Position numbers and translations under genes: made by a program | The notes under the pieces: model-generated | Told to the model about the DNA's origin: nothing | Databases searched by the model: none | What the model saw: the letters and a program-made list of their open reading frames with translations, nothing else | Assembly: GCA_963666365.2 (NCBI GenBank) | Contig: CAXXNF010000002.1 | Coordinates: 2,112,001-2,176,000, forward strand | Direction: 5' to 3' | DNA length: 64,000 nucleotides | From: Syntrophales bacterium | Lineage (GTDB): Bacteria > Desulfobacterota > Syntrophia > Syntrophales > UBA2210 | Shown here: positions 13,846 through 60,130 of the stretch, piece by piece | Position numbering within the stretch: position 1 is the stretch's first letter | Layout: each line of letters opens with the position of its first letter

Positions 13846-13846
13846 T

Positions 13847-41577: not shown

Positions 41578-41643
41578 TATCGGCACAACGGCGCAACATC
41601 CTTATTGACAGGGTCGAAGATTTTCTGTATTGATCCGCTATGC

Positions 41644-41741
41644 GGAAGTGCCAAGGTCACTGGTGGGCCTCCCGGACTTCAAATCCGGTGTGGGGGGCTA
41701 GTACCCTCCCAGGTGGGTTCGATTCCCATGCACTTCCGCCA
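41644..41741 (+). tRNA. selC: tRNA-Sec (UCA)
   Basis: GGAAGTG/CACTTCC acceptor stem with GCCA end, CCGGA-CTTCAAA-TCCGG anticodon arm, long variable arm, GTTCGATTC T-loop; TTGACA at 41605. Confidence 0.95.
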
Positions 41742-41806
41742 ATCATTTCAATATGTTAGCGTTCAGCTCCTTTTTAATGTCCACACCGGATTTATCCATT
41801 AGCACA

Positions 41807-42877
41807 TTATTGTGATAAAATTGTGATAGATTTTTGCGCTTCCTGCAAAACCGATTGTCGCTCCCTTGAAGCTTCATCGACTTTTTTTGCTGCAGAACGG
41901 AGATCCTCCTCGTTTATAATGTTGTATCGGTCAAATACACTCCTTGTCTTGTGACCGCTGATCTTCATTGCAACAACATCGGGAACTCCTGCTCTCGTCA
42001 TGTTTCGGACAGCTGTCCTTCGATTGTCATGCAAAAATCTCCCCACCAGCCCGGTCTTTTTACAGGCAGTATTCCAAGCTGCCTGGTAATTTCGAATCTG
42101 CTGCCCATCCCTAAAGAAGACGTAGGGACATTCCGGGTACTTTGTCTCCCTTATCTTCCACTGCAATAGAATCGTATCATAGAGTTCTCCTGTAAGAAAA
42201 ATCTCCCGACTTTCGCCATTTTTCGTCAACTCTGGAGGTAGCGTGATTTTTTCTTCAAACAGGTTGGTATGACACCATCGCAGATTAAGGATTTCCGATT
42301 TTCGCATCCCGGTAAAGTAGGCAATGGTCAAAACCGGTTTCATGTGAGCGGGTAAAGCATTTCGTAAACGAACGTACTCATCGTACTCAAAAAACCCTTG
42401 CCTGGGTTTGCTCTCCTTTAATTTCGGGATAAAAGGGGGATTCAGTACCCTGGGAGGACTTTGTCTCATCCCCAGCACAAAAATCCTGTTCAAGGCCGAG
42501 AGTTCCCTATTAATCGTCCCATTACTGGCCTTTTCTTCCTTTCTCAAAAGAATATAGTCATCTATAATACTTGATGTGATCTCAACAACTTTCATCCCGC
42601 CAAAGAAAGCTCCTAAGTGCTTAAGGCTTAATTCCGCACGATCCAGCGACCGCCTCTCGCGAATCTTATAATCTTTGATGAGTATATTGCTCAAGTCATC
42701 GAATGTTACCTTATCGAGATTCATATCGGGACGCTTTCCTTCCGCAATCTCGCCTTTCAATTTGTCAAAGATCCGCTGGGCCAGTTTTCGGTCTTCCGTC
42801 TCCGTTGACCGTCTGTACTGTTGCCCCTGATGAGTAAAACTCATCCACCAGACCGTTCCTCTCTTATAGAGCCCCAT
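41807..42877 (-). CDS. int: tyrosine integrase
   Basis: [24 protein letters not shown] catalytic set; RBS AAGGAGGT before MGLYKRG. Confidence 0.93.
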
Positions 42878-43235
42878 CTCTGACCTCCTTTCCGAGGCCC
42901 TTGATCCGGTCTGATTTCCCGTGATCGTCATGGTAATACTTTCCCTTTTCCTCGTCAATGGTCTTGCGGATGACCTTATCGAAGTTCCCGCCATTCCTGC
43001 TGACGGGCCCTCTTCTTCTTTTCTGCACATGCGGGTCTTTCGTTTCTCCACGCCGGTGTTCTTCCAGCCAGTCATCGACCTCTTCCATCCTGAAGCGAAT
43101 AAGTCGCCCGATGCGGTAATGAGGTATGTCTCCCGCTTCAACCTTCGCATACAATGTTTTCACTTTAACCCCGAGATATGCCGAAAGCTCTGATATCGTT
43201 AGCAAACATTGGGGTTCCTTTACTTTTCCTTCCAT
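42864..43235 (-). CDS. excisionase / HTH_17 DNA-binding protein
   Basis: [31 protein letters not shown]; overlaps int start. Confidence 0.85.
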
Positions 43236-43544
43236 TTTCGATGTCTCCCATCCGGGATCGGATGGTAATTGCATCGATGGCCACCAAACTGTCCGGCGGT
43301 CTGTGTCATGGTAATTGTTTCAAAAAAATCTGATCCCTGCTGTTGTGTGTTAGTCCCATGGAAAGAGCCCCGCCAGGGCTCTCCCCTCCTACGTTATGCT
43401 TACCCTTTTGCGCACCTCCTTTTATGTCAGTACCATATATTTATACATAGAGGGACAGAATGTCAATAACATATTGTATATACTATAATATACATCATTA
43501 TAACATTATTCTACCGATATATTATTGTTAATGTTAAAATCATC

Positions 43545-43582: not shown

Positions 43583-44287
43583 ATGATTAATGAAAAAAAA
43601 GACATGTCACGGAAAAAAGACCTGAAAATCCTTATTGAGGATTACCTGGAGCGGGACATTCTGCAAATGGAAACCCTTTTTGACAGGCGAAGACATGACG
43701 CAACGGCACTTTTCAGCAGAATCTTCCAACTGCTGGGAGCACCAGAAATTGATGCTGACGACCTGACGCCTTATGAATTGAAGGAAACTGTCCTGGAATG
43801 GCATGGGCTCTTGTCGCCAATCTGGGGGAAAATTAAGAATGCTTTTCTTGATTATCGTAACCATGTTCTTCCAGAAAAAAGAACGCACCAACGTATGATT
43901 ACATCGGCACAAAATCCTTTGTCACCACTCAGCAAATACAGGGATCTAGTGGAACACACACCTGCCTTTCCCGAGGAAAAAACCTACGCCATAAAAGCTC
44001 GACGAATGCCAGTCACTATAAATCTTTCCTTCTCTTCCGAAAAATTTCATATCTCCATGGAGGGTCTCAGAATACTCGATAATTTTCTTCTTCATCTTAA
44101 GGATGTGCCCATAGAGAGCTTATATCCCTGCGACCACTGCGGGAAGATCATTGTGGCAACCAGAAAGGGAAAACGATATCATGCGGGATGTGCCGCCAAA
44201 GCGAAACAGAAAGAACGGTGGGAAAAAGATCCTGAAGGATGTCGCGAGAAAGAACGACAGCGATATCGGGAACGAAAAAAAACATAA
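43583..44287 (+). CDS. hypothetical protein with C-terminal CGNR-like zinc finger
   Basis: CDHCGK..KRYHAGCAAKAKQKER. Confidence 0.6.
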   Translation: MINEKKDMSRKKDLKILIEDYLERDILQMETLFDRRRHDATALFSRIFQLLGAPEIDADDLTPYELKETVLEWHGLLSPIWGKIKNAFLDYRNHVLPEKRTHQRMITSAQNPLSPLSKYRDLVEHTPAFPEEKTYAIKARRMPVTINLSFSSEKFHISMEGLRILDNFLLHLKDVPIESLYPCDHCGKIIVATRKGKRYHAGCAAKAKQKERWEKDPEGCREKERQRYRERKKT

Positions 44288-44454: not shown

Positions 44455-45525
44455 CTATTTCATTAAGTCCTTCTTCTGCTCTTCACTCCTCTTCTTGTAT
44501 GTCGCTGCATATGCGGCACATAAATTTGAGCAATACTCTTTATTAGCTTTGGGGAATTTTACGAAGAGCCTTTTCTGGCGACATGATTTGTTTCCGCAAA
44601 TGCCAAAATAATCGAGGCTGACGTGGGAAAACATCATCATAATTAGATGTGCTAACTCATTTTTCGCATTTGTAAACCTCTTTTTAAAGTTGTCATCGAG
44701 ATAAACATGCAGGCTGTGGTAATTGAAATCCTTTGTGGGCCTTTCTTTGCTCAAAATGTTCGGGAAATAGCATTCAATCAGTGAATATTCATCCAAGGCA
44801 ATCATTGCTTTAATGTCACTTATAATAGAATCGAGTAGTGAAAAAACATCTTCAACCCACAATTCAAATAACTTTATGTTGATCATAGGGTATCCGTTTC
44901 GTTTCTGATAGTGGAAATAGGCAACCACATCATTGGTTAACGTACGGAAAGCCTCTTGAACCTCCTGCTCAGAAACCCCGTCCAGAAGACTGTGCAGGAA
45001 ATCGTTGTCAGGTTTTTTAAACTCGCGTGCAAACTCTTCCTGCAACGTGTCCGCTTTGGCTTCCGAAAAACTTTCAATTCCCTTTTTCCTAAAATATAAC
45101 GACTCTAAAACTGCGTATTCTCTGATTTCCGGTTTTTCTAAAACACCGTCAGCAAGATTGAATGCCAGAACAACATCGTCGGGATTTGAAAAGTCAAAGT
45201 GGTCATTGTTATATATGTCGATAAAATGCTTTCGTGTGACTGGTGATGAAAACCAGGAATCAACCCGGTCGATGGAAGGTTTTTCCTGCAGATCGTACAA
45301 TGGTGCTCTTTTTCCTCGAAGGAATTTCCTGAAATTGACCACCATAGCCCTTGTCGGTCCCTCCCCCTCCTTTAAAAAGGGTGCATACAACATCCAAAAG
45401 GTTTGCATCTTGTCTATGAGGATAGCCCTCTTTTTCTGCGATCGTTTATTATCGTAATAAAATTGCTCGATTAGGAATTTCAGACCCCACAATTTTTGTG
45501 TCAGATGGCTATCGATCCCTTCCAT
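44455..45525 (-). CDS. hypothetical protein with C-terminal CGNR-like zinc finger
   Basis: CGNKSC..LF..KEYCSNLCAAYA..YKKR; ATG after AGGAG. Confidence 0.6.
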   Translation of the reverse strand: MEGIDSHLTQKLWGLKFLIEQFYYDNKRSQKKRAILIDKMQTFWMLYAPFLKEGEGPTRAMVVNFRKFLRGKRAPLYDLQEKPSIDRVDSWFSSPVTRKHFIDIYNNDHFDFSNPDDVVLAFNLADGVLEKPEIREYAVLESLYFRKKGIESFSEAKADTLQEEFAREFKKPDNDFLHSLLDGVSEQEVQEAFRTLTNDVVAYFHYQKRNGYPMINIKLFELWVEDVFSLLDSIISDIKAMIALDEYSLIECYFPNILSKERPTKDFNYHSLHVYLDDNFKKRFTNAKNELAHLIMMMFSHVSLDYFGICGNKSCRQKRLFVKFPKANKEYCSNLCAAYAATYKKRSEEQKKDLMK

Positions 45526-45587
45526 GTTTAATGAACTCCTCAAGTTTTTGCAATAGTTCGTTAAAAATAAATCAATATTATCAACTA

Positions 45588-45998: not shown

Positions 45999-46110
45999 GA
46001 AAGGAGGTACAATTATGAAGATATAAGCATATCATCGGATCAGCACTAATTTAAAATTTATAGACACATGTGGGGCCGGTTTTTTTCTGTGAAAGCCGGC
46101 CCTTTTTATT
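45999..46110 (+). promoter_or_regulatory. SD-minigene(MKI*)-terminator module 1
   Basis: GAAAGGAGGT-6nt-ATG AAG ATA TAA (46015-46026); GGGCCGGT/GCCGGCCC stem + TTTTTATT. Confidence 0.6.
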
Positions 46111-46137: not shown

Positions 46138-47202
46138 ATGTCGAATGACGAAAATATTACGAACTTAGAAGTAGAAAACGAAGTCATCACGGATGAGAAC
46201 AATCAGCATAACATTCCTTCAGTCGATGTAAATCATGACTCGATAGAGCCCGAATCAGAATACTGGTCCTATATGGGTACCGATAGTACCGCTGTTAACG
46301 AAATTAGAATATGCAGTGTCGGTGAGGAATTGGATGATGCGGAGGGTTACGGAGAGCGAATCAATGCCTGGACCGGGGAACTTGAGGCAAACCTCGTCGA
46401 GGGTAGAACAAGGCCCATCAATGATTTACTAAGCGATGGGGTTACCATGGTCCGTGAAATATCAGCAGACGCCAACAGCCTGATCAACTCCGCGAACCGT
46501 GATTTTGCGAACCGGGCTATTCAAATCGGTATTCTCTGCATCAAACTCAAGAGCCTGCTTTCGGAATCCAAGAGAAAATGGGGCCCCTGGGCAGAGGAAA
46601 ACCTCCCTTTCATAGCCCGACGCAACCGTGAAAAATATATGCGGCTTGCGAAACGTAAAGATTGCTGGCCCTTCAGCTTCCTGGGCGTTGACCGTCTCGA
46701 TGAGCTCTGCGCGGCGACCGAAAAGATGTCAGGCGAGGATAGAATTGGAGATCTCTTTCGCACCTACGGGATCCCCTTCGATGAAGGCTCGGAACTCAAC
46801 ATGACCGAATTTCGGCTCAAGATCGACACTGCCATCGCCAATGAACGGCTTATCAAAAAAAGCATAACAATTGATCCTGCCCTGGTCGAGGCCGTGATTC
46901 GCCAGGGAATCGAAGTTGACGGCGCCCTTATTCGTCGGTTGTCGGACGCAATAAGTTCCGGCGGAAATCCATCCATGCTGCTTGAAAAAATTTCCCTTGA
47001 GGGCGGCCAGGAGCCACAGAGCAAGGCACCGGAAACGCGAGTCAGAGATTTTAATAGTCTTTCCAATAAGTTGATCAAAACGATTGAATTCATTGCGGGA
47101 GACAGGGACCATCTGGACAGAATCGACAGGGAGAGCCTGGAGAGGCTCCTGGAAAAACTTCAGGGTATTCTGGAGCAATTTCAGCCTGAAACGGTAGCGT
47201 GA
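46138..47202 (+). CDS. hypothetical protein with DUF3102-like domain
   Basis: AIQIGILCIKLK..KWGPWAEENLPFIARRNREKYMRLAK; acidic N-terminus. Confidence 0.55.
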   Translation: MSNDENITNLEVENEVITDENNQHNIPSVDVNHDSIEPESEYWSYMGTDSTAVNEIRICSVGEELDDAEGYGERINAWTGELEANLVEGRTRPINDLLSDGVTMVREISADANSLINSANRDFANRAIQIGILCIKLKSLLSESKRKWGPWAEENLPFIARRNREKYMRLAKRKDCWPFSFLGVDRLDELCAATEKMSGEDRIGDLFRTYGIPFDEGSELNMTEFRLKIDTAIANERLIKKSITIDPALVEAVIRQGIEVDGALIRRLSDAISSGGNPSMLLEKISLEGGQEPQSKAPETRVRDFNSLSNKLIKTIEFIAGDRDHLDRIDRESLERLLEKLQGILEQFQPETVA

Positions 47203-47215
47203 CTTTTAACAATCC

Positions 47216-47258
47216 GGCCCCTTACCGTCTCCGTAATGGTGGGGGGCCTTCACTTTTT
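47216..47258 (+). terminator. intergenic terminator-like hairpin
   Basis: GGCCCCTTACCGT/ATGGTGGGGGGCC then TTCACTTTTT. Confidence 0.55.
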
Positions 47259-47274
47259 ATAAGGAGATACAATC

Positions 47275-48156
47275 ATGAAATTTTACCAAGCCTCCATGAG
47301 TTTGCGAATTCTGCAGAGGTACTGGAAAGTATTCGGTGAGAAAGTCAATATCCTGCTCTCTTTTGCCTATGTCGGCTCTGACTTTTCGAACATTGTCACC
47401 AACTGTCGGCACATGGTGAAGGGACTCGTTCTCGATTCCGGTGCGTGGTCCGTTGCCACGGGTGTTGCCGACCTTTCGCTGCAAAACTACATGGCGTTCA
47501 CAAAACTCCATGGTCATCGCTTCGATCGATATTTCAATTTCGACACAGACTTCAGTGATAGCGGCTTTGATCACAACGTAGCCCACCAGCTGATCATGGA
47601 GCGGGAGGGACTTTCCCCAGTTCCCGTGGTTCACAATCTCTTTGACGGTGAGATCGATTATTATGTTCAGTCCGGCAGATATGACTATCTCGCGTTGGGT
47701 TCGAGCCAGACAACCAATTATGACGACCTGGCCTATGGGGTTCATCGAATCAAGAAGGCAAAGGAGGACATGAAAATTCACTGGTTCGGCGGCGGCAGGT
47801 ATGACTGGCTCAGCAGATTGCCCATAACATCCTGCGACACATCATCGTGGGCATCACTCGGCAAGTTCGGTTTCATCATGTACTGGAACCAGCATCAACC
47901 GGGGCCGAACAAGGCTGACAAAATATACGTCAGCGGCACAGTGCGACCGGTAAAGGAAGATGAGTTTCTCTACACCACCTATCCCTGGAGAGAGGAACTT
48001 GACCGCTACATTTTCACGGTCTTTGGGCTCACCTTTCATGATCTCTGTGCCTACGAGGGAGCCTTCAACATGCAGCTGATCAATACCAGGTTCTATGCGG
48101 AAATGGAAAAACGGATCAATGAGGAGCGGACCCGCCGGGGAATCGCACTGGAATAA
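47275..48156 (+). CDS. tRNA-guanine transglycosylase-like (TGT/DpdA-like) protein
   Basis: LVLDSGAWS, YFNFD, PVPVVH, YLALG, KIHWFG, SCDTSSW in TGT barrel order. Confidence 0.7.
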   Translation: MKFYQASMSLRILQRYWKVFGEKVNILLSFAYVGSDFSNIVTNCRHMVKGLVLDSGAWSVATGVADLSLQNYMAFTKLHGHRFDRYFNFDTDFSDSGFDHNVAHQLIMEREGLSPVPVVHNLFDGEIDYYVQSGRYDYLALGSSQTTNYDDLAYGVHRIKKAKEDMKIHWFGGGRYDWLSRLPITSCDTSSWASLGKFGFIMYWNQHQPGPNKADKIYVSGTVRPVKEDEFLYTTYPWREELDRYIFTVFGLTFHDLCAYEGAFNMQLINTRFYAEMEKRINEERTRRGIALE

Positions 48157-48288
48157 AAAACGCAGGAGTCTGCGCTTTTTAAATATTCAACGAAAGGAGG
48201 TATCATTATGGAATAACTATTATTGATACAAGTTGTTAGGACTACAATGGAAGTGGGACGTCTCCAGGAAGGGCGTCCCTTTTTTATT
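48157..48288 (+). promoter_or_regulatory. palindrome + SD-minigene(ME*)-terminator module 2
   Basis: ACGCAGGAGTCTGCG; GAAAGGAGGT-6nt-ATG GAA TAA (48208-48216); GGGACGTCT/GGGCGTCCC + TTTTTTATT. Confidence 0.6.
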
Positions 48289-48359
48289 CCAGCACCATGA
48301 ACAGCGGAAGCATCCGGCCTGGCGGACTCCTAGAAAAAAATACAGAAAGGATAAAACAA

Positions 48360-48908
48360 ATGTCAGGAAAAGTCTTTGATGACCTAAAAAGAATTTTCGA
48401 ACAAATTGGCATCCAGATGGACGATGAAGATGAATTGGTTAATTCGGTTTATACCTTAGTGGGCTTTTATGATTACAGAAAAGTTGAAATGTGTGTGGCA
48501 CTCGAACATCATTACTGGCCCCACTTTTCCAAAATCTGGATTGGCGAAATAACGGTGCCAATAGAAAAGATATCTGCTGCCTATGAGCTTATTAGCAGAA
48601 TCAATTCACTGCTTGTATATGATCATTTTAAAATCGACCCCGAAAGTGGTGAAATCGGATTGTATGCTGGTTTTTATAGTGGAATGGTCGGATGCGACGA
48701 AGATGAAGAGGAATTAAATGATGGTTTGGATACATATAGTTTTATGCATATCCGTATGTTGATTTATCAGATGATCCGACATTTTTCCCTTTTTTCACCA
48801 TTGTTTAACACATTAACTAAAACCGATAAGCTTCCATCTGTTATCATGGAAGAATTTTGGAACAAACTTTCCAAAAAAAATAAAGCTGAATTGAGAGAGT
48901 ATCTCTAA
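48360..48908 (+). CDS. YbjN-like (T3SS-chaperone fold) protein 1
   Basis: VPIEKISAAYELISRINS..HFKIDPESGEI; RBS GAAAGGA. Confidence 0.55.
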   Translation: MSGKVFDDLKRIFEQIGIQMDDEDELVNSVYTLVGFYDYRKVEMCVALEHHYWPHFSKIWIGEITVPIEKISAAYELISRINSLLVYDHFKIDPESGEIGLYAGFYSGMVGCDEDEEELNDGLDTYSFMHIRMLIYQMIRHFSLFSPLFNTLTKTDKLPSVIMEEFWNKLSKKNKAELREYL

Positions 48909-48950
48909 TAATCTTCCCAAAGGGACCATCGTGGAATACCGCTGGAATGA

Positions 48951-49096
48951 AAAACGCAGGAGTCTGCGTTTATTGAGAAAGGGGTGAGCGGATATATGAT
49001 TGCATGAAAACGGTTTTCGGTTAAGCAACTCAAATAATTCAGGTATACGCAATGATAAAGGGGATTGTCTCTCAAACGGGACGCCCCTTTTTTATT
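48951..49096 (+). promoter_or_regulatory. palindrome + SD-minigene(MIA*)-terminator module 3
   Basis: ACGCAGGAGTCTGCGT; GAAAGGGGTG-9nt-ATG ATT GCA TGA (48996-49007); GGGGATTGTCTC/GGGACGCCCC + TTTTTTATT. Confidence 0.55.
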
Positions 49097-49127
49097 GCCA
49101 TTAATCAAAGAAAGGTAGGATTTTGAA

Positions 49128-50123
49128 ATGAATAAGATGAATAAGTTTACCGCTAAAGACAAACAGATCTTCGATGACATGAAGCAATGCGTCAAGGATC
49201 TCGGATTAAAAATTGTTGATGAGTATGTGGAGGAAGGGGTTCTTTTGGGAATGTCTACGTTTGAATACCCAGGTTACAACTTGGGGATCTTTTTTTCCTA
49301 TACCCCGTCAACGAATATGGCGTCGGTGGTTTTGGGGTATGCAGATATACCGGTTGAGAAGCTTCCAGCTCTGTATGATTTGCTAAACCGCATTAACGGA
49401 CACCTGATAGGCAACCACTTTTCTATCAATCCTGAACTTAGGATTCTTCTCATGCATTCAGGCATGGAAGTGACTGGCTACTTCCTCGATAAAGCGGCAT
49501 TTATGGGTATCCTTGGACATGATCTCGGCTCAGGACATACGTTTATGCCCTTGATTGGCAAGGTCCTGGCGAGTGATCAAACACCCCAGGCGGTGATGGA
49601 GGAATTTATGAAACAAAAACACAAGATGCCTCGTACCCTGTTTATGCAGGATGGGACGCTCAGAGTGGAACAGGAGGCAGAGGATCTTCCATTCTTCATA
49701 CATGTGTATAAAGATATGCCTGCTTTTCCCACCCACACCCATGGCCTCACAGAACTGGGCATGCCAGAGTTTTTAATGGATCCTCTTTCATTTGGTCAAA
49801 AGGGAACGTACACGCTCGTCATTGTGTCGTACAACTATTTCAGCTGTCCCGAGAATAAAGCTAAGCTGGAAGCCATTATGAATGGGAAAATTGTCAAATT
49901 GACGCACCGTGACCTGGCGCCTGACGGATGCGGTGAAGACCCTTACGTCTATTGCTACCGCAGGGTCTATCCAGAGTTCGAGATGGTCAGGCAAGCATAC
50001 AACATCGACGAGGAAAAGGAACAATCAGACGCCTCTCCGGAAGTGTGTTTTGTCCAGATCTACGTTGAGGGAGATGATCATGTCTTGACTGACGATTACT
50101 ACAAGGGCGGGGTTATGTGGTAG
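49128..50123 (+). CDS. YbjN-like protein 2 with extra C-terminal domain
   Basis: IPVEKLPALYDLLNRINGH..FSINPE; C-terminal THTHGLTELGMPEF (DUF4261/4262-like). Confidence 0.55.
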   Translation: MNKMNKFTAKDKQIFDDMKQCVKDLGLKIVDEYVEEGVLLGMSTFEYPGYNLGIFFSYTPSTNMASVVLGYADIPVEKLPALYDLLNRINGHLIGNHFSINPELRILLMHSGMEVTGYFLDKAAFMGILGHDLGSGHTFMPLIGKVLASDQTPQAVMEEFMKQKHKMPRTLFMQDGTLRVEQEAEDLPFFIHVYKDMPAFPTHTHGLTELGMPEFLMDPLSFGQKGTYTLVIVSYNYFSCPENKAKLEAIMNGKIVKLTHRDLAPDGCGEDPYVYCYRRVYPEFEMVRQAYNIDEEKEQSDASPEVCFVQIYVEGDDHVLTDDYYKGGVMW

Positions 50124-50142
50124 GGTAATCAAAAACTAATAC

Positions 50143-50189
50143 ATGACAAAGGGGATCGATCGTGCCCGAGATTGATCCCCTTTTGTCAT
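50143..50189 (+). terminator. intergenic hairpin
   Basis: ATGACAAAGGGGATC / GATCCCCTTTTGTCAT. Confidence 0.65.
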
Positions 50190-50220
50190 TTCAGCACTTT
50201 CAGAAAGGAAGGAAAAGACA

Positions 50221-51249
50221 ATGAGTAAAAAGAAAAATAAACAAGGCAATAAGGTCGTAAGGGACTTGAAGGAATGTTTCCGGTCCTTCAATCTACCCGT
50301 CAATAAACTCAAAGGCAATCATGACGATCCCATGAATGTCGTCTTCACCTCTCAGCTCTGTAATGACCAGGCCTGCGCATTTGTAGCCGTTACGTTTGAT
50401 AGGTTTAGAGGATATATCGGCATGGACGCCGCCGCCCTTCGCTTTAAAATTCCTCAAGAGAGAATGGGAGAGACATTGACGCTGTTAAATCTGCTCAATG
50501 AAATCAGGCCTATCTGCAGCTATTCGGTTTGCCCCTGCTGCAATACCGTGTCATATAGGACAGCTTTGTTTCTCTCTGGTGAGACCCTTCCTGTGAGTAA
50601 ATTCAGAAGGCTTATCCAGGATATGCTTGAAGAGACATACCTCTGTTTCCCGTTGATATCCAAAGTGGCCACAGATGGCAATCCCAAGGATCTTCATGCT
50701 CGGTTTATGGATGACCATAAACATCTGATGAGCATGGAAAGTAAGTTGTCCCAAAAAGCAATAAAGCAGATTCTTGATGACATGGGGCAGGTTATGGCCA
50801 ACCTCAAAATACCGATTCATGAGAGGCTCTCTGACGGTTTTGTCACGGATCTCATGCTTGAAGGCATGGATTTTCCGGTCCGTATCGGCGTTACACTGGT
50901 AAAAGAATATGAATTGGTCACGCTGAGCGTTGGACCAGCCTTTACCGTTCCAGATGACAAGATTCCCGTAATGTTGGATTTGGTGAACCGGATCAATAGA
51001 GCGTCCGAGCCAGATCATATGTTCATTAACCAGCAATCAAAGCGGGTGATCCTTGTCAACGGGATTCTGATCGACAATGGCACCTTTGATAAAAGGGAGT
51101 TAGAATTGTCGCTTCAAATCCTGCTGGGAAAAGGAAGGTTAGTCTTTCACACTATCAATGAGCAGCTTTCTTCCAATGAAAGCCCAGAAGATCTTTTCGA
51201 AAAGACGATAAAATATCACGAGAAGATCATCGAGAATCAGAACGTTTAG
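50221..51249 (+). CDS. tandem double YbjN-like protein 3
   Basis: IPQERMGETLTLLNLLNE and VPDDKIPVMLDLVNRINR repeats. Confidence 0.55.
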   Translation: MSKKKNKQGNKVVRDLKECFRSFNLPVNKLKGNHDDPMNVVFTSQLCNDQACAFVAVTFDRFRGYIGMDAAALRFKIPQERMGETLTLLNLLNEIRPICSYSVCPCCNTVSYRTALFLSGETLPVSKFRRLIQDMLEETYLCFPLISKVATDGNPKDLHARFMDDHKHLMSMESKLSQKAIKQILDDMGQVMANLKIPIHERLSDGFVTDLMLEGMDFPVRIGVTLVKEYELVTLSVGPAFTVPDDKIPVMLDLVNRINRASEPDHMFINQQSKRVILVNGILIDNGTFDKRELELSLQILLGKGRLVFHTINEQLSSNESPEDLFEKTIKYHEKIIENQNV

Positions 51250-51254
51250 TTGAT

Positions 51255-51936
51255 TCTGGAAACCCACACCCTGTGGGTGTGGTCATGTGGGATTGGCTGT
51301 GCCAGTCCCGAATGGGTATGGCCAAATAGGCCGCCCACTGCTATCCTTGCTCAGAGTTGTTAGCCACAACAAAAGAGCAAGGAGGAAGCAGTGAGCAGAT
51401 TTCACAAGTTATCACATACGATATGGCATTGTCAGTACCATATTGTATGGGTTCCGAAATACAGATACCGGATTCTGACAGGTGCTGTTCGGGATGCGAC
51501 AGAGGCGGGGATTCAAGCGATATGCGGTTATGCAGGGTGCGAAGTAATCGAGTTAAACGTACAACGTGATCATGTACACCTTGTGGTAATGATACCGCCC
51601 AAGCTGTCGATATCGAATTTGATGGGTCGCGTTAAGGGACAGACATCAATGAAGATGTTTCATCAATTTCGGGAATTGCGGAAGAAGCCCTATTGGGGGA
51701 ATCATTTTTGGGCAAAAGGATATTGTGTTGACACAGTTGGACTGAATGCCGAGATGATTCGGAAGTATGTCCGGTATCAGGAGAAAAAAGAGAAGCAGGA
51801 AGAGCAACTGAGGTTAGATTAAGAGCACAGAGACATGCGGCACAACTCGCTATGCCTCGCCCCCTCTGGGGGCAGAGGCACAATCCCCCTATGGGGGATA
51901 AATTAAAGCCGCGTCCTGTGGGCGCGGATTATTTAC
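51255..51936 (+). mobile_element. IS200/IS605-family element (tnpA only); ends approximate
   Basis: Subterminal hairpins CCACACCC-TGT-GGGTGTGG (51264) and CCGCGTCC-TGT-GGGCGCGG (51909) flanking tnpA. Confidence 0.85.
51391..51822 (+). CDS. tnpA: IS200 Y1 HUH transposase
   Basis: YHIVWVPKYR, DHVHL, FWAKGY, IRKYVRYQ. Confidence 0.95.
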   Translation: MSRFHKLSHTIWHCQYHIVWVPKYRYRILTGAVRDATEAGIQAICGYAGCEVIELNVQRDHVHLVVMIPPKLSISNLMGRVKGQTSMKMFHQFRELRKKPYWGNHFWAKGYCVDTVGLNAEMIRKYVRYQEKKEKQEEQLRLD

Positions 51937-52129: not shown

Positions 52130-52315
52130 ATGAAGACAGCCTGTTTTACAAAAGCGTTAACCGTAGCCTTTACCGAAGACATTTACCTGAAAATCAAGGA
52201 AATAACCGATGAGAAAAATATTTCCATGGGGGAATGGGTGCGAATCGCAGCGGAAAGGGAATTGAACAATAACGAGTATATCAAATGTATTTCTGGAGGA
52301 ATCAAGCATGACTAA
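52130..52315 (+). CDS. small RHH/CopG-like DNA-binding protein
   Basis: LTVAFTEDIYLKIKEIT..ISMGEWVRIAAE; RBS AAGGAGG; overlaps primase start. Confidence 0.6.
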   Translation: MKTACFTKALTVAFTEDIYLKIKEITDEKNISMGEWVRIAAERELNNNEYIKCISGGIKHD

Positions 52316-54647
52316 ATTTATATCAGACAAAGAGACTTTCATTACAATGGCATCTGATTTTTTCAACGAACTTTTTGAACCAGCGTTTAATAGCGAGTGC
52401 GGTGATATCGAAATCAGGACATTCAAACCATCACCTCAACAGAACTTTTACAAATCGGAGCATGAAGCCGCTGAAAGAGCGTTCGATTTATGCAACCGGG
52501 GCATTGATGTGTATTTCGGAGTGAATCCGCGAACCGGCAATGCTGGAAAAAAAGAGAACATCCAGTATGTGAGTGCATTCCACGCGGAAATCGATTACGG
52601 CGAAACAGGTCATAAAAAAGATACACCCCATAAGACGTATGAAGACGCCTTAAATGCTATAGAATCCTTCAACCCGGAACCAACCATTATTATCCACAGC
52701 GGCGGCGGCTTTCATTGTTACTGGGTATTGAGCAATCCCGTAAAGGTCGATGCCATTGGATGTCAGATTCTGGAAAGCATCAATAAAAATCTGTCGGAAA
52801 AACTGGGAGGCGATCGGGGAACACAGGACATTACACGGGTGCTGCGAGTGCAAGGTACATACAATTTTAAAATAATGGACAATCCGCGACCAGTAATGCT
52901 CATATCCAACAGTCATAAGAAGTATGAGTATGAGGAGTTCAGGACATTCATACCCACCGAACATGCAGTCGCAAGCGGCATACCAGACACCGGCAAAAAT
53001 CTTCAGACACACCGCCCAGTTGCGCATGTTGAGCCCTCACAACTGTCGTTTGATATAGAGAACTTGCCTGTTTCGAGTAAAATAAAGTCGCTTATTAAGA
53101 ATGGCAATGACGGCAGGTATACATCAAGAAGCGAAGCAGACATGGCGGTGGTAATTGCTCTGGTGAATAAAGGGGTGAATACAGAAAATATCAAACAGAT
53201 ATTTCTCAACTGTGGCATCGGTGAAAAATACAGGGAGCATCGCTCAAAAGACGACTATTTGAACCATACCATTGAACAGGCAAAAAAATACTCTGATCTT
53301 ACCGAAGAAGAGAGGACAGACCCGCTTTTCATTACAAACGCGCTTTTAAAAACAGATGGGAGATATCGACTCAACATTCTGAAATTTCAAGAATACATGG
53401 TCAGAAAATACCGTATAGTCATTCTTGACCGTGAACAGGCAATGTTCCGCTATACAGGTAAATGCTATGAACAGATAACAGATAAGGCCCTTAATAATCT
53501 CTGCCAGAGGGAACTGAAGGACCATAGAAATCTCTTTTCCCGGTCGTCTCTTTCAGAATTCATCCATTACGCCGTGGGAGAAACACTGGCCGACAGCGAG
53601 AAGGTGAAGCAGGAGCAGGTCAATTACCTGACAATGCAAAACGGCATCTATGAATTTGACCGTGGGAGATTATTGCCCCGTACCCCAAAAATCTTCACAA
53701 CGAATCTTCTGCCTTTTGAATACGACCCCAATGCTAAATGCACCAGATTCATACAGTTTCTTAATGAAGTATTCGAAGGTGAGCAGGAAAAGATCCGTTT
53801 CGTACAGGAAGCTGTGGGGTACATCTTTCACAAGTCCATTCCCACCCCTGCGGTCTTTTTCCTTATCGGGTCAGGCAGCAACGGCAAGTCGGTTTTCATT
53901 AACACCATATCCAGCCTGGTAGGAAAGGAGAATACAAGCAACGTCAGCTTCAACCTCCTTTCCGACGAGACCTACATTCTTGAGCTTTATCAGAAGATGA
54001 TCAACATCTCCGGTGAAACCCCTCATGCAAAAACGATCGATACAGATGTGATTAAAGCGGTGACGGCTGGCGATTGGGTTACGGGAAGAGAGCTTTACAA
54101 ACCGCCCATGAAATTCCGACCTTTTGCTAAAAGCTTTTTAGCTATGAATAATCTGCCCACAATAAAAGATACCTCGCATGGTATGTGGCGGAGAATATGG
54201 GTTGTCACTTTTCCCAAAAAATTTGAAGAACATGAGATGGATCGACAGCTGGAAGAAAAACTCACGAAGGAGTTATCAGGCATCTTTAACTGGGCGCTTG
54301 AGGGGTACAGTAGATTAAAAGGAAACGGTTTTTCTTTACAGGAAAGCGATTCCATGAAACTGGAGAAGAAGTCTTACCGGATAAGTGCCGACAGTGCCAG
54401 AGAATTCATTAGTGAATATCTTGCTCCTTCGAGTGATGAAAATGCACGAATTAAACTTAGTGTGCTCTATAACCACTATAAAGACTGGTGTAATTCACAA
54501 AGATCAAAAGATGTTAAAAATAAAAATGAATTCAAAATAATACTTGAAGATATGAAATATTATGTAGACAACTCTTCAAAAGACAATAATCAAGTTCATG
54601 CATTCAATGTTGTTTTTAAAGAGAATATAAAAAATATTATTGTATAA
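52308..54647 (+). CDS. primase-helicase (RepB-like primase + P4/D5 SF3 helicase)
   Basis: VYFGVNPR, AEID, SGGGFHCYW, RVLRV; GSGSNGKS, KAVTAGD, MWRR. Confidence 0.88.
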   Translation: MTKFISDKETFITMASDFFNELFEPAFNSECGDIEIRTFKPSPQQNFYKSEHEAAERAFDLCNRGIDVYFGVNPRTGNAGKKENIQYVSAFHAEIDYGETGHKKDTPHKTYEDALNAIESFNPEPTIIIHSGGGFHCYWVLSNPVKVDAIGCQILESINKNLSEKLGGDRGTQDITRVLRVQGTYNFKIMDNPRPVMLISNSHKKYEYEEFRTFIPTEHAVASGIPDTGKNLQTHRPVAHVEPSQLSFDIENLPVSSKIKSLIKNGNDGRYTSRSEADMAVVIALVNKGVNTENIKQIFLNCGIGEKYREHRSKDDYLNHTIEQAKKYSDLTEEERTDPLFITNALLKTDGRYRLNILKFQEYMVRKYRIVILDREQAMFRYTGKCYEQITDKALNNLCQRELKDHRNLFSRSSLSEFIHYAVGETLADSEKVKQEQVNYLTMQNGIYEFDRGRLLPRTPKIFTTNLLPFEYDPNAKCTRFIQFLNEVFEGEQEKIRFVQEAVGYIFHKSIPTPAVFFLIGSGSNGKSVFINTISSLVGKENTSNVSFNLLSDETYILELYQKMINISGETPHAKTIDTDVIKAVTAGDWVTGRELYKPPMKFRPFAKSFLAMNNLPTIKDTSHGMWRRIWVVTFPKKFEEHEMDRQLEEKLTKELSGIFNWALEGYSRLKGNGFSLQESDSMKLEKKSYRISADSAREFISEYLAPSSDENARIKLSVLYNHYKDWCNSQRSKDVKNKNEFKIILEDMKYYVDNSSKDNNQVHAFNVVFKENIKNIIV

Positions 54648-54659
54648 TGTAATACTTTT

Positions 54660-54940
54660 TTCCCAAAAGATTAAAAAGAGATTAATTCCCAGCATAAACA
54701 TTAATCAGTAATAGCTGAATATAATAAAATGGTTAAACCGAAAGATTAATAGATTAATTCTTTTTTATATTATTTGTTGCAAATAAAAAACAATATTATA
54801 AATATAATATAAATTATAAATAAAAAATAAAAGATAGGAAATTACATTAATCTGTTAATTTTTACCAGAACACAGTAATAATATTAATGATTTTAGATTA
54901 ATGGATTGTATATTTATTTAATCTCTTTTTAATCTGACTG
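54660..54940. other. candidate replication origin of the element
   Basis: 18-bp perfect IR AGATTAAAAAGAGATTAA (54668/54918), many ATTAA units, very AT-rich core. Confidence 0.7.
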
Positions 54941-55200
54941 TTTCCTCAGAGAAATATTGTCCTTCATGAGTTTTTCAAAAAATAGTACAATAATAGTAAT
55001 GTAAGAACCCTTAAGCAAATTTTGGCAAAAAAAAGAAAAGACAAAACAATATGAAATAGTTTACCTTCAAATATTGAAACTTAAAACCAACAACACTGAA
55101 TTAAAACGACTCCTTTTCCGGTAATTCGATTGATCCCCGATACTGTTTTGACTTTAAAAGAGCATCTTAAAGAACTTATAAATGCCCAGAAAAACCGAAA

Positions 55201-55590
55201 ATGACTATCACTGCACGTTTCCTTCAACACCCCCTGGGAGAGCTTTTTGCTCATAACCTTCTATCGAAGAGCTATGACTGGTTGGATAACCGGTTTTATC
55301 GCCTCCCCAATAATGCCCAGGTTTTCTATAGAAGGTTTTTGATCCACAATGACTATAAGAGTATCCCCCTGAAAATCGAGACGATTATAGAAGCATTAAA
55401 CCTCGTTGACAAAAATATCACCAACCTGACCGGAACAATAGAAACGAATATCCTGAAGCCGCTCATGGACCAGGGATTAATCGATTCCTATGAGAAAAAG
55501 AGGGATGGTCTCTACGGTTTGAAGTTCATAATTAAGCGATCGAAAAATTCAGTACCCGTTGAGATTGACCTTCAACAGCCGTCAAGTTGA
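55201..55590 (+). pseudogene. truncated plasmid Rep (TrfA/RepA-like) C-terminal winged-helix fragment
   Basis: AQVFYRRF..IPLKIETIIEALNL..LKPLMDQGLIDSYE; no SD; iterons follow. Confidence 0.45.
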
Positions 55591-55598
55591 GATGGATT

Positions 55599-55657
55599 GA
55601 GGGTCTGTAAAACTTTAATCGAGGGTCTGTAAAACTTATATCGAGGGTCTGTAAAAC
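55599..55657 (+). repeat. three iterons, 22-bp period
   Basis: GAGGGTCTGTAAAAC at 55599, 55621, 55643; AAGATATAAT repeats at 55704-55730. Confidence 0.85.
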
Positions 55658-56380
55658 GGAAACCGATTTAAACCTTTCAGATTGGTTAGGATCTCAAAAA
55701 TACAAGATATAATAAGATATAATAAGATATCTTAATACCGGAACCCCTCCCTTTGGGTCGGGTTTCCTCGGGGACCATATAGTTATATTTTTGTAGTTAG
55801 GGAAAAATGGTTATGGAGATATGAATATTCATACAAGAAGATTGGTCATGCATTACTAAAGGAATTGGTCAAGAGGAAATTATGGGGTAATAGATTTATA
55901 GTAATGAAGAATGGGTAAACATTACTTGTGAGATTGGTCGTACACACCATGGGGTTTACTTGTAAGAAATACAAAACTATAACAAATAAAAAATGGTGAG
56001 AGAAGAAGAGTGGTCGGTTGCTGCTTTTATCTACTGTTTACTTCATGCTGCTGGTGGGTATACTGAAACAATACCCTCTGAAGTCTATCTCATGTCTTCC
56101 AGGAAAGAAGATCTGTGGGAAAGTGGAATGGATCGCGAAGGGTTCCCATGGTAGTAGCGTCCGTTATTACAGCAGGAGTAATGGGTCCCGGTTTCGCGCG
56201 CCGCCTGATGGGATCGTGAGCCTCATTGAGGGAGACCGTCCGTACTGTCGAGCATTCACCATCCCGGGACTTCTCAGGTTGTCTCTCCGGTGAGTTCTGC
56301 CGCATCGTATATATGGGGTTGGATTATGAATGAACGAGTGCTGACATCAAAGCAGGAAGGTTTGAGAGGGGAGGGCAAAT

Positions 56381-56396
56381 ACGCAGGAGTCTGCGT
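56381..56396. repeat. third copy of ACGCAG-GAGT-CTGCGT palindrome
   Basis: Identical 16-mer to the copy at 48954. Confidence 0.85.
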
Positions 56397-56612
56397 TTTT
56401 AGCTGTTTTCACCATGAGCATCGGGCAGAATGGATGGACGTATTGAACATTCTCCGAGACTATCGAAAGTACCTCTGCAAATAAACGAGATCATTCCGAA
56501 ATAACGACCGTTTTTCGCCGTTCTTGATATTTACAATGAATTTTGGGCGAATTCGGGAAGGCGTTGGAATGAAAGGGATATGTGTTGCGGAGTACACCTC
56601 TAAAGCCTCAGC

Positions 56613-56684
56613 GGTGGCGGAATCAATCGGAATCAGCTGGCGGAATGAATCATATTCGGGTGGCGGAATGCGTCGGAATATCCA
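56613..56684. mobile_element. orphan IS21-family terminal remnant
   Basis: Repeated TGGCGGAAT/CGGAAT units ending ..CGGAATATCCA. Confidence 0.55.
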
Positions 56685-56889
56685 TTTCGTTCAACGGCTC
56701 TTCACGTTTCATCGAATGAGCAGGCGCACCACCCGCCTTTTGCGGCCCGCCTTCGTCTCCATGATAATCAAATATCTCTTACAGTATCAACGGGATACAA
56801 AATTATTTTTATCATACGCCCCTTCTGGCACGGTTCTTTCTATAAAGTAAGGCAAAGACACACGAACACACCAAAAGGAGGAAAATGAT

Positions 56890-57165
56890 ATGAAACGGAC
56901 ACTTCAGACACTGATCATGGCGGTCTTCGTGGTTCTGATTACGGCATCCTTCAGCTTTGCCGAGTATGTGGCATCGACGGCGGGGAATTTCCCCTACTTC
57001 CAACTGGGCTGCCTGGTGGTGGGCGGTCTGATCATCACCTCACTGAAGCACAAATACTCCAAGATCTACATGAGCGAAGCCGTCGGTTCCTTCGCGCTGT
57101 ACGCGGTGCTGGTGGCCCTCTTCACGGCTCCGGTCATCGATGGATTGAAGGCATTGGTCAGTTAG
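56890..57165 (+). CDS. small membrane/exported protein
   Basis: RBS AAGGAGG; signal-like N-terminus and two TM segments. Confidence 0.7.
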   Translation: MKRTLQTLIMAVFVVLITASFSFAEYVASTAGNFPYFQLGCLVVGGLIITSLKHKYSKIYMSEAVGSFALYAVLVALFTAPVIDGLKALVS

Positions 57166-57236
57166 ATAGAGTAATATAGAAAAAGAGCGCTTCACCTGCA
57201 TAACGGCAGGCATCCTCGGAAAGGAGGACAAAGGCA

Positions 57237-57482
57237 ATGACAGCATTGAGAGAACATATGCACCAGATGGAGAACAGATCGCAATACACGTCGGTATTCA
57301 TGATAAGCGTGTGGGGATTTGTAATCGCAATTTCGTCCTTCCTCTTTCTCTATGCGGGGTACTGGCTTGACCAGCAGTTCGGTTCCGCGCCGACCTTCAT
57401 GCTGGGACTCTTCTTTCTCGGGGTGTTCCTCTGCATAGGTCGTCTCTACTGGGAAGTCTGGGTGAGACGGGGAAAGGACTAA
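57237..57482 (+). CDS. AtpZ/AtpI-family small membrane protein
   Basis: AGYWLDQQFGSAPTFMLGLFFLG; RBS AAGGAGG. Confidence 0.75.
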   Translation: MTALREHMHQMENRSQYTSVFMISVWGFVIAISSFLFLYAGYWLDQQFGSAPTFMLGLFFLGVFLCIGRLYWEVWVRRGKD

Positions 57483-57673
57483 ACCCTGCCGGCAGCGCCG
57501 GTTGCCTCGTCGATAACGCCCATCGTATACAAAAGATCCCCCTTTACTATCAAAAAAGGGGGACTTTTTTGAATCCGGCGACAGCATACGCAATTACGAC
57601 CCTCTCACGCGACACTTCCAGTCTGTCGTGCACTTTTGTGGTTTTTCGAGGACCAGTATCCCCGGAATTGACC

Positions 57674-57702
57674 TTGACACACAAGAGAACGTTTCTTATA
57701 CT
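57674..57702 (+). promoter_or_regulatory. sigma70 promoter
   Basis: TTGACA-N17-TATACT. Confidence 0.7.
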
Positions 57703-57849
57703 GCCGCCAACTGAAAGTAATTTCTCATCAATCGCTGATATCGGACTGTTAGAGGCACCGCAACCACTGGCGATCGACGGACCACCGGCCGCACCGTGTT
57801 TCCACCGGCAATGGCGCGGATTCTTTAACCAAAACGACAGGAGCAAACG

Positions 57850-59850: not shown

Positions 59851-59862
59851 CGGAGCGTGGAC

Positions 59863-60014
59863 TCAATTCCGGGGACAGACTCAATGCAGTATTTCTGCAA
59901 AAAAGGTACAATTCCGGGGACAGTATACTTAATTCAGTATTTCTGTAAAAAAGGTGACGGTATTTTTTTGCCGGCTTTCAAGGAAACCTGAGGGCCTTTA
60001 ATTAAGTATACTGT
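59863..60014. repeat. REP-like repeat cluster (AATTCCGGGGACAG family)
   Basis: Two tandem ~45-bp units; ACAGTATACTTAATT (59920) inverted at 60000-60014. Confidence 0.75.
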
Positions 60015-60130
60015 TTGAATGCATAAGTAAGAAAGATTGCAGGAAACCTCCAGGCGGGTCACAATGTTTGTAAATGCAAACTGCTGGGTCGAGATGAGTT
60101 CGCCCAGAAATGAACCACAAGGAGGTTTCC

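Follow-up and report, generated by a model that had tools for sequence, protein, structure and literature searches.

Can a small mobile island mark DNA with 7-deazaguanine bases that its host makes? This question is raised by two adjacent genes in a 64,000-nt stretch of the genome of a Syntrophales bacterium (GenBank assembly GCA_963666365.2, contig CAXXNF010000002.1, positions 2,112,001 to 2,176,000), hereafter the window, in whose coordinates positions are quoted. The downstream gene encodes an enzyme of the tRNA-guanine transglycosylase (TGT) superfamily that resembles DpdA, and the upstream gene a largely helical protein, here called the partner. On balance, we read the pair as a host-fed two-gene module for 7-deazaguanine modification of DNA. 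This reading is favored because the transglycosylase active site appears intact, the closest relatives are DNA-modifying phage enzymes, the host supplies a precursor, and the setting is mobile. A first-pass annotation, made from the sequence alone, had called both open reading frames (ORFs) and described them as a stand-alone TGT/DpdA-like base-exchange enzyme and a DUF3102-like protein. Both ORFs were found (Table 1), each with a Shine-Dalgarno-like AGGAG upstream, and we consider them real genes since both have many relatives.

The TGT motifs reported for the 293-aa protein were all present in its translation, in the order DSGAWS (54-59), FDTDF including D90, PVPVVHN (115-121), ALGSSQ (140-145), HWFGG (169-173) and SCDTSSW (186-192). 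The enzyme has three cysteines (C44, C187 and C258), among which C187, adjoining the putative nucleophile Asp, is the only one invariant in a 34-sequence alignment. No Cys cluster follows D188, and the annotation was right that the zinc-binding cysteine cluster of tRNA TGTs is absent. A C-terminal Zn-binding CxCxxC...H subdomain is a feature of the Z. mobilis TGT. Across 53 diverse relatives (23-52% identity to the enzyme) the only invariant columns are D54, D90 and D188, so the aspartates predicted to be catalytic are retained throughout. D54 lies within the DSG motif and D188 within SCD(T/S)SSW, which aligns with SCDSSSW of phage DpdA; in the alignment made with a broad profile, H169..G172 and D188 fall on VHLLG and SIDST of the DpdA structure 7ui4 (E 0.09). 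As reported by Gedara et al. (PMC10164549), Asp95 (acid/base), Asp130 (base recognition) and Asp256 (nucleophile) of DpdA are invariant in TGT and DpdA, and at the level of sequence D54, D90 and D188 match these active-site aspartates. H120 and H169 are nearly invariant among the 53 relatives, and their positions correspond to DpdA His181 and the hydrogen-bond donor to the Cap10 nucleophile, as judged by motif position without superposition.

Comparison of folds led to the same superfamily. The AlphaFold2 (AF2) model of the enzyme, built with 34 relatives, had a mean pLDDT of 90.4 and a pTM of 0.87. When it was searched against the PDB with Foldseek, the Z. mobilis TGT ranked first (E 5e-7, probability 1.0, TMq 0.57-0.60), and against viral models phage 'queuine tRNA-ribosyltransferases' came first (best E 4e-10, TMq 0.71). 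The top five matches in a VIA structural search of 48,161 chains were all TGT-superfamily members (Z 14.3-15.9), namely archaeosine TGT (arcTGT, 1iq8; Z 15.9, 260 aligned, rmsd 3.9), the DNA preQ0 insertase DpdA (7ui4; Z 15.7, 266 aligned, rmsd 3.9), the CBASS protein Cap10 (9ntn_B; Z 15.1, 242 residues), bacterial TGT (Z 14.9) and QTRT2 (Z 14.3), while generic TIM barrels reached Z 12.8 at most. The TGT fold read from motifs in the annotation is therefore upheld, a TGT-type (beta/alpha)8 barrel being a confident prediction of the model.

The enzyme belongs to a large family. A word-indexed search of 5.8 billion proteins returned 200 relatives at E<=1e-3, every source-named one of them labelled 'hypothetical', and a profile search of 1.84 billion representatives yielded 3115 clusters at E<=1e-3, of which 795 remained at E<=1e-10 and 142 at E<=1e-30; among the 150 clusters listed of these 3115, full-length relatives are mostly ~280-310 aa. 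PHROG 887 ('queuine tRNA-ribosyltransferase') matches the enzyme (E 1.1e-21) and 53/53 diverse family members. Within the phylum the family is rare and patchy, being present in 4 of 401 sampled genomes, the present one included, and the host genome carries one copy only.

By sequence, the family is connected to enzymes of DNA modification. Its nearest phage homologues are, judged by similarity and gene order, dpdA genes of complete 7-deazaguanine clusters. A tblastn search of 50,697 phage records gave matches in 148, the best of which were Queuovirinae-type genes with 25-29% identity over ~90% of the length (E down to 3e-12). BLASTP against the gene in the dpdA position of Providencia phage PSTCR4 gave 29% identity (E 3e-19) with all three Asp aligned; the gene order there is yhhQ, queE, gat-queC, queD, folE, then the enzyme homologue, and in Pantoea phage Vid5 the homologue directly follows yhhQ/VUT-queE-gat-queC-queD-folE, in the same layout. 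The match in phage VogelGryff carries the annotation '7-deazaguanosine inserting enzyme DpdA'. A scan of IMG/VR viral contigs with the alignment of close relatives revealed no relative of the enzyme among 47 pattern matches. Phylogeny sets the family apart from TGTs. In a quick maximum-likelihood tree of 62 sequences (53 family members, two related loci L012 and L013, five phage DpdA, the host TGT and a TGT-like gene from locus L006), computed without bDpdA, DpdA2, DpdA3 and DpdA4 sequences, the enzyme family and phage DpdA split from the TGTs with an SH-aLRT of 86. The position of the family relative to the Queuovirinae DpdA fell into a polytomy, and from the shape of the tree the enzyme is DpdA-like, but not placed in bDpdA or DpdA1-4, the subfamilies named in PMC10516641.

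It could be argued that the enzyme is a second tRNA-guanine transglycosylase whose specificity has changed, acting on RNA (tRNA or other, of host or helper). The top structural match is the archaeal tRNA TGT (Z 15.9), tied with DpdA, and PHROG as well as record annotations name the phage relatives 'queuine tRNA-ribosyltransferase'. These names are historical, however, and the relatives in both phages examined lie within 7-deazaguanine synthesis clusters; phage DpdA is described as inserting 7-deazaguanines into DNA (PMC6884629, PMC10516641). Moreover, the Zn subdomain is missing, the Pfam TGT model matches none of the 53 family members, and the host already has a full-length tgt. We consider an RNA target quite improbable.

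The reading as a DNA modification module presupposes a supply of the base. The host genome (4.0 Mb, 2 contigs, 94% complete) has queD, queE and queC side by side, another copy of queD, a queF match and the full-length tgt, all outside the window, which is in line with the proposal that host preQ0 could serve as the source. No que or dpd genes were found among the island ORFs by Pfam, NCBIfam and PADLOC, and the other ~50 kb of the window were not scanned for dpdB/dpdC. The earlier statement that the window lacks dpdBCD and que genes is thus correct insofar that the que genes map elsewhere and the island scans were empty, and for dpdB and dpdC it extends to the island ORFs only.

We next consider the partner. 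Thirteen related loci, identified in a scan of one genome per species, come mostly from metagenome-assembled genomes (MAGs) of delta-proteobacteria, Syntrophaceae, Syntrophobacteraceae or Desulfobacula. In 12 of the 13, tblastn and a partner HMM applied to six-frame translations place a homologue of the partner immediately upstream of the enzyme gene, and the pairing put forward in the annotation is thus a recurrent one. The exception is L013, whose enzyme is 33% identical and has a different gene, on the other strand, in the partner's place. Pfam scans around 10 longer loci showed that the type of integrase, the type of replicase and the downstream cargo vary without the pair being separated: integrases are present in L004, L005, L006, L007 and L013, and replicases range from D5-type (L011) to Prim-Pol/DnaB (L005) and PolA-type (L008, L009). 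An integrase also occurs in L031, a more distant member from the phylum scan. No integrase was found within 8 kb in L003, and no que genes in any related flank scanned. In a distant, transposase-flanked locus from the phylum scan, a 386-aa upstream gene aligns with the partner profile (hhalign E 0.0059; 188 columns, the same landmark motifs, low probability). The upstream ORF of L031, a locus that shares the integrase/HTH_17 layout, gave E 0.049 over 33 columns, which we treated as no relation. In L008 (6983-8881) frameshifts split both the partner and the enzyme gene, so the pair is decaying there; the downstream orf61-primase module is intact.

The partner itself has 49 homologues, and its most conserved stretch reads W..WAEENLPFI..RNREKYM..A.R.D....FLGVDR. 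Its AF2 model has a mean pLDDT of 73.8, with residues 1-65 below 50, and the N-terminus is variable among homologues. Pfam gave no match even at E<=10, and NCBIfam no family at E<=1. PF11300 (DUF3102) is touched weakly by 3 of 29 partner homologues (best E 0.0056), and the protein atlas lists DUF3102-named clusters with a score of 0.94. The label 'DUF3102-like' thus has some footing among the homologues and none in a Pfam match of the window protein itself, and we take DUF3102 as a weak, sequence-based lead, not as membership. The three best VIA matches were DNA-bound proteins, the VirB core (3vwb; Z 6.7, 99 aligned, rmsd 3.1), P1 ParB (1zx4; Z 6.5, 114 aligned, rmsd 4.4) and SopB (3mkw; Z 6.2, 110 aligned, rmsd 3.7), all on residues ~122-245. 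Sigma-factor matches in Foldseek (E 0.1-1) were weak and disregarded. Read from the sequence, the partner lacks the ParB N-terminal NTPase domain and the DGQQR motif, and tblastn of the partner against phage genomes gave no match.

A complex prediction for enzyme and partner scored 0.44 (runs 0.37, 0.48 and 0.44) against 0.00 for the best control, which is classed as 'weak support'. The mark applied is reached by 116 of 157 solved complexes and by 2 of 215 mismatched pairs; passes at a score of 0.60 or below comprise only 18 of the 157 solved complexes, plus both passing mismatches. The runs agree in at least 78% of contacts, with a partner pLDDT of at least 87.

Between the two genes lies a hairpin followed by a run of Ts. 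A comparable structure with a 12-16-bp stem, followed by Ts and preceding the ribosome-binding site, was found in 11 of 11 related loci folded (L001-L007, L009-L012); the stems differ in sequence among loci but retain the structure, whose appearance is that of a conserved attenuator, terminator or mRNA-end structure.

These observations also bear on an alternative in which the role of the enzyme is unchanged, but the partner is a regulator of the island or a partition-type DNA-binding protein (VirB/KorB/ParB-like) whose adjacency reflects backbone synteny. The sole structural resemblance of the partner is to the DNA-binding domains of plasmid ParB/SopB/VirB, a terminator-like hairpin divides the genes in 12 of 12 cases (the window and 11 loci), and the partner was not detected beside the distant members L013 and L031; in addition, phage DpdA works alone in E. 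coli without such a partner (PMC6884629), and the support from complex prediction is weak. On the other hand, backbone synteny does not readily account for a pair that is kept while integrase, replicase and cargo change, for a remote homologue that is again directly upstream in the distant transposase-flanked locus, or for complex-prediction controls at 0.00 against 0.44. We regard this alternative as unlikely, yet as the most serious of those considered here.

A further possibility is that the enzyme is Cap10-like and holds or transfers a protein-linked 7-deazaguanine, as in type IV CBASS deazaguanylation, with the partner or another island protein as carrier. Cap10 (9ntn_B) is tied with DpdA at Z 15.1 over 242 residues, it is of similar size with the same Asp and His pair (bioRxiv 10.1101/2025.04.06.647259), and the enzyme has an obligate-looking protein neighbor. 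However, scans of the island and of related flanks revealed neither a QueC-like Cap9 nor a CD-NTase, PADLOC gave no match, and the variable, disordered N-terminus of the partner lacks the M(G/S)G(G/S)GG start of the CBASS carrier described in the same preprint. The sequence search finds phage DpdA. A Cap10-like function seems very unlikely indeed.

Reading the pair as a DNA modification module should be done with some caution, since a number of results weigh against it. Curated models do not recognize the enzyme: Pfam gave no match even at E<=10, PF01702 (Pfam TGT) matched 0/53 family members at E<=0.1, and the NCBIfam DpdA model (NF041059) scored 11.8 bits against a cut-off of 200. Sequence searches of the PDB returned 0 matches for the single enzyme sequence, chance-level rows only for the close profile, and for the broad profile nothing significant, with 7ui4 at E 0.09 only. 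Structure cannot separate DNA, tRNA and protein-linked substrates, because arcTGT, DpdA, Cap10 and TGT lie within 1 Z unit, and in the tree the five Queuovirinae DpdA form a clade on a branch of 3.75 inside a polytomy. For phages with a singleton DpdA the modification status 'is difficult to predict' (PMC6884629). The sole host QueF match (G000:C1:1420750-1420983, L021) contains one in-frame TGA, which could reflect gene decay to a pseudogene, an error in the sequence or recoding, and the supply of preQ1 is therefore uncertain. As for the partner, its Z scores of 6.2-6.7 are below the level at which the tool is trusted for helical proteins, so the resemblance to ParB-family DNA-binding proteins is a lead, and no PDB entry was returned by Foldseek at E<=0.001. 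Neither in L013 (tblastn, HMM) nor in L031 (hhalign) was the partner detected, and it is therefore not obligatory for the wider enzyme family; the adjacency could be inherited synteny, and the intergenic hairpin argues against strict co-translation or stoichiometric co-expression of the pair. Since the family is unseen by the Pfam TGT and NCBIfam DpdA models, its members are annotated 'hypothetical' where they are named and would be missed by DNA hypermodification surveys built on these models.

The pair lies in a region of roughly 42-56 kb across which the GC content falls from ~0.52-0.55 to 0.34-0.49 (Table 1). The tRNA-SeC gene at its left edge is the likely integration site, and the right border at ~56 kb is judged by GC only. 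No copy of the tRNA-SeC 3'-end with up to 3 mismatches was found elsewhere in the window, none appeared in the repeat scan, and there is no exact shared word of 10 or more between 41630-41815 and 54600-60200. The integrase is 65% identical to that of L007, aligned from residue 57 only, and its listed 447-aa ORF overlaps the HTH_17 gene by ~290 nt; consequently, the true start is probably internal. A relative of the three paralogues that follow the enzyme gene also follows the pair in L001, L002, L003, L004, L005, L007 and L011, with a short fragment in L008 (tblastn), and the third paralogue (50221-51249) matches Pfam YbjN (PF10722, E 2.1e-7). A transposase separates the YbjN-like genes from the primase module in the window; in L011 the corresponding genes are adjacent, without a Y1 transposase. 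The same 61-aa and primase genes follow the pair in L011 (59% identity) and L008 (56% identity). The iteron-like repeats sit in the stretch of lowest GC (0.34) and may be the replication origin of the island. One copy of the 24-nt repeat follows the enzyme gene and contains the hairpin at 48161-48174; a second follows the next gene, and the third lies close to the presumed right end.

Table 1. Features of the island and of the gene pair, in window coordinates.
Feature	Position	Strand	Description
tRNA-SeC	41644..41741	+	ARAGORN; left edge of the island
Tyrosine integrase	41807..43150	-	PF00589 E 2.2e-17; 66 nt downstream of tRNA-SeC
HTH_17 excisionase-like gene	42864..43274	-	PF12728 E 3.2e-16
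Island gene, function unassigned	43583-44287	+	C-terminal cysteine-pair (zinc-ribbon-like) motif, similar to that of the next gene
Island gene, function unassigned	44455-45543	-	C-terminal cysteine-pair (zinc-ribbon-like) motif, similar to that of the preceding gene
Terminator-like hairpin	46072..46103	+	Upstream of partner gene
Partner	46138..47202	+	354 aa; residues 1-65 disordered, remainder all-helical (predicted)
Hairpin, then T-run	47216..47248	+	13-bp stem; between partner and enzyme genes
Enzyme	47275..48156	+	293 aa; DpdA-like TGT-superfamily member
Predicted active-site roles, enzyme			D54 general acid/base; D90 base-binding; D188 nucleophile
24-nt hairpin-forming repeat	48156-48179, 48950-48973, 56377-56400		92-100% identity
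Two terminator-like hairpins	48161-48174, 48255-48279	+	After enzyme gene
Three paralogous genes	48297..51249	+	203/331/342 aa; cross-match the same stretches of related loci
IS200/IS605-type Y1 transposase	51391-51822		PF01797 E 2.7e-40; between YbjN-like genes and primase module
61-aa gene and 779-aa primase/D5-type helicase	52130..54647	+	PF19263, PF08706, PF22763; replication module
Iteron-like repeats	55596..55666	+	Three 27-nt copies, 22-nt spacing; downstream of primase-helicase and a 129-aa ORF

Among the island proteins, none was recognized as a capsid or transfer protein. With an integrase, replication genes, neither capsid nor transfer genes and no second att site, we interpret the region as an integrative, probably replicative island. 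The earlier description as 'satellite-like' is plausible in view of the integrase, the excisionase-like gene, the primase-helicase, the iterons and the lack of structural genes, but neither a helper nor a second att site was identified. NCBIfam gave no DpdB or DpdC family match for 7 island proteins, and PADLOC, run on 10, found no defense family except a weak AbiEii match (E 0.0027) in ORF 55201-55590.

Mobile islands often carry defense cargo, and the enzyme could accordingly be a defense factor that removes or exchanges modified guanines in invading phage DNA, or leaves abasic or covalent lesions there, and thus protects host or island. Mobile elements abound in glycosylases directed at 7-deazaguanine-modified phages (bioRxiv 10.1101/2025.10.29.685425), and TGT chemistry is a reversible base exchange that starts with excision, for which the acid/base and nucleophile Asp would be needed too. 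The defense glycosylases of that preprint are, however, described as having glycosylase-like folds, and its main text contains 'TGT' 0 times. PADLOC was empty for the 10 island proteins bar the weak AbiEii match, and the nearest sequence relatives are phage enzymes that modify DNA, which makes a defense role improbable.

Some related loci carry other genes of note. L006 has, ~4 kb downstream of the pair and on the same island, a second TGT-superfamily gene of 367 aa (12828-13931; PF01702 E 5.5e-15, NCBIfam tgt_general below cut-off). Spore-photoproduct-lyase-like radical SAM genes occur downstream of the pair in L003 (13144-13422) and L004 (8939-10117) and in L013 (11594-13608), where the gene is paired with a DUF5131 / 'radical SAM mobile pair protein A'-like gene; they may be another DNA-directed cargo of such islands. 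The gene in the partner's place in L013 (6579-7706, minus strand) encodes a protein with a cysteine-pair C-terminus comparable to that of the two unassigned island genes.

If the pair is a DNA modification module, it might work as follows. The chemistry would be the double displacement of TGT and DpdA: D188 would attack C1' of a (deoxy)guanosine in the target, with D54 in the role of general acid/base, and the base would be recognized by D90 together with S55 and H120. A 7-deazaguanine of host origin, either preQ0 supplied by queD-queE-queC or possibly preQ1 formed via queF, would then take the place of the guanine. The target would most likely be the island's own DNA, possibly also the host chromosome while the island is integrated, and the benefit, as in phages, would be to shield the DNA of the element from restriction during transfer. 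The 354-aa helical partner would serve as a DNA-binding or loading subunit for the enzyme; for the targeting role that the annotation had suggested for it, the resemblance to a ParB-type HTH and the complex prediction are weak indications. The intergenic hairpin with its T-run would probably set the level of the enzyme below that of the partner. DNA as the target, the base inserted, a physical and functional link between enzyme and partner, and the role against restriction are what we infer from the observations above. A bolder version is possible, although we doubt it more than we believe it: the partner, ParB-HTH-like but devoid of an NTPase domain, would take over from DpdB and bring a minimal DpdA to specific DNA sites, and non-viral integrative elements would thus possess a self-contained system for marking their DNA with host preQ0/preQ1 before transfer.

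Four known systems invite comparison. With the phage DpdA1 type (Queuovirinae and relatives such as 9g, CAjan, PaMx25 and Vid5; names from PMC10516641 and PMC6884629) the enzyme shares a length of ~300 aa, the TGT barrel without Zn subdomain, the DSG, H..FG and SCDSSSW-type motifs, 25-29% identity over ~90% and the same PHROG. The phage genes examined, however, are in full 7-deazaguanine clusters of virulent phages, whereas the enzyme here is a singleton on an integrative island, grouped apart from the five Queuovirinae sequences in the quick tree and accompanied by a conserved upstream partner that has no phage match by tblastn. The 76 'group three' phages likewise have a dpdA but no preQ0/G+ synthesis genes, and are presumed to use host preQ0; the queuosine pathway is present in most of their hosts (PMC6884629), and also in the host here. 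Those are phages of Mycobacterium and Gammaproteobacteria, whereas the present carriers are non-phage integrative elements in Desulfobacterota-type MAGs. The bacterial Dpd system (DpdA, DpdB, DpdC, DpdD-K) of Salmonella Montevideo is also island-borne, and its DpdA (7ui4; PMC10164549) has the same fold (Z 15.7) and the same three Asp. In that system the transglycosylase depends on DpdB, a ParB-like DNA-associated ATPase, whose role is the one proposed for the partner here. In contrast to Dpd, the present enzyme is ~110 aa shorter and stays at 11.8 bits with NF041059, where 200 are called for, neither the ParB N-terminal NTPase domain nor DGQQR is present in the partner, and no DpdC or restriction genes were recognized in the island. 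Cap10 of type IV CBASS (9ntn; bioRxiv 10.1101/2025.04.06.647259) is likewise a compact TGT-family protein (Z 15.1) in complex with a partner protein; here no Cap9 or CD-NTase was found, and the partner has no glycine-rich N-terminus.

Singleton dpdA genes that presumably use host preQ0 were thus already known from 76 phages (PMC6884629), and island-borne DpdA from Dpd (PMC10164549). What is new is a large, unannotated family of ~290-300 aa that the curated models do not cover, the presence of this family on small non-viral integrative elements in anaerobes, and a conserved helical partner with a conserved intergenic hairpin. We found no description of the enzyme-partner pairing in the literature searched, and the supplementary tables of DpdA homologues in PMC6884629 and PMC10516641, which were not opened, might include family members.

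In conclusion, the presented data point to a third setting for 7-deazaguanine modification of DNA, beside phages and Dpd islands: small integrase/primase islands of anaerobic Desulfobacterota-type bacteria, which carry a stripped-down transglycosylase and one conserved helical partner and would obtain the base from the host. If the non-viral system is indeed self-contained, these elements would be a third carrier class for 7-deazaguanine modification of DNA, with a new principle of targeting. If the partner is a targeting or loading subunit, the pair would provide a simple two-gene system for the question, open for DpdA/DpdB, of how a TIM-barrel base-exchange enzyme reaches duplex DNA.

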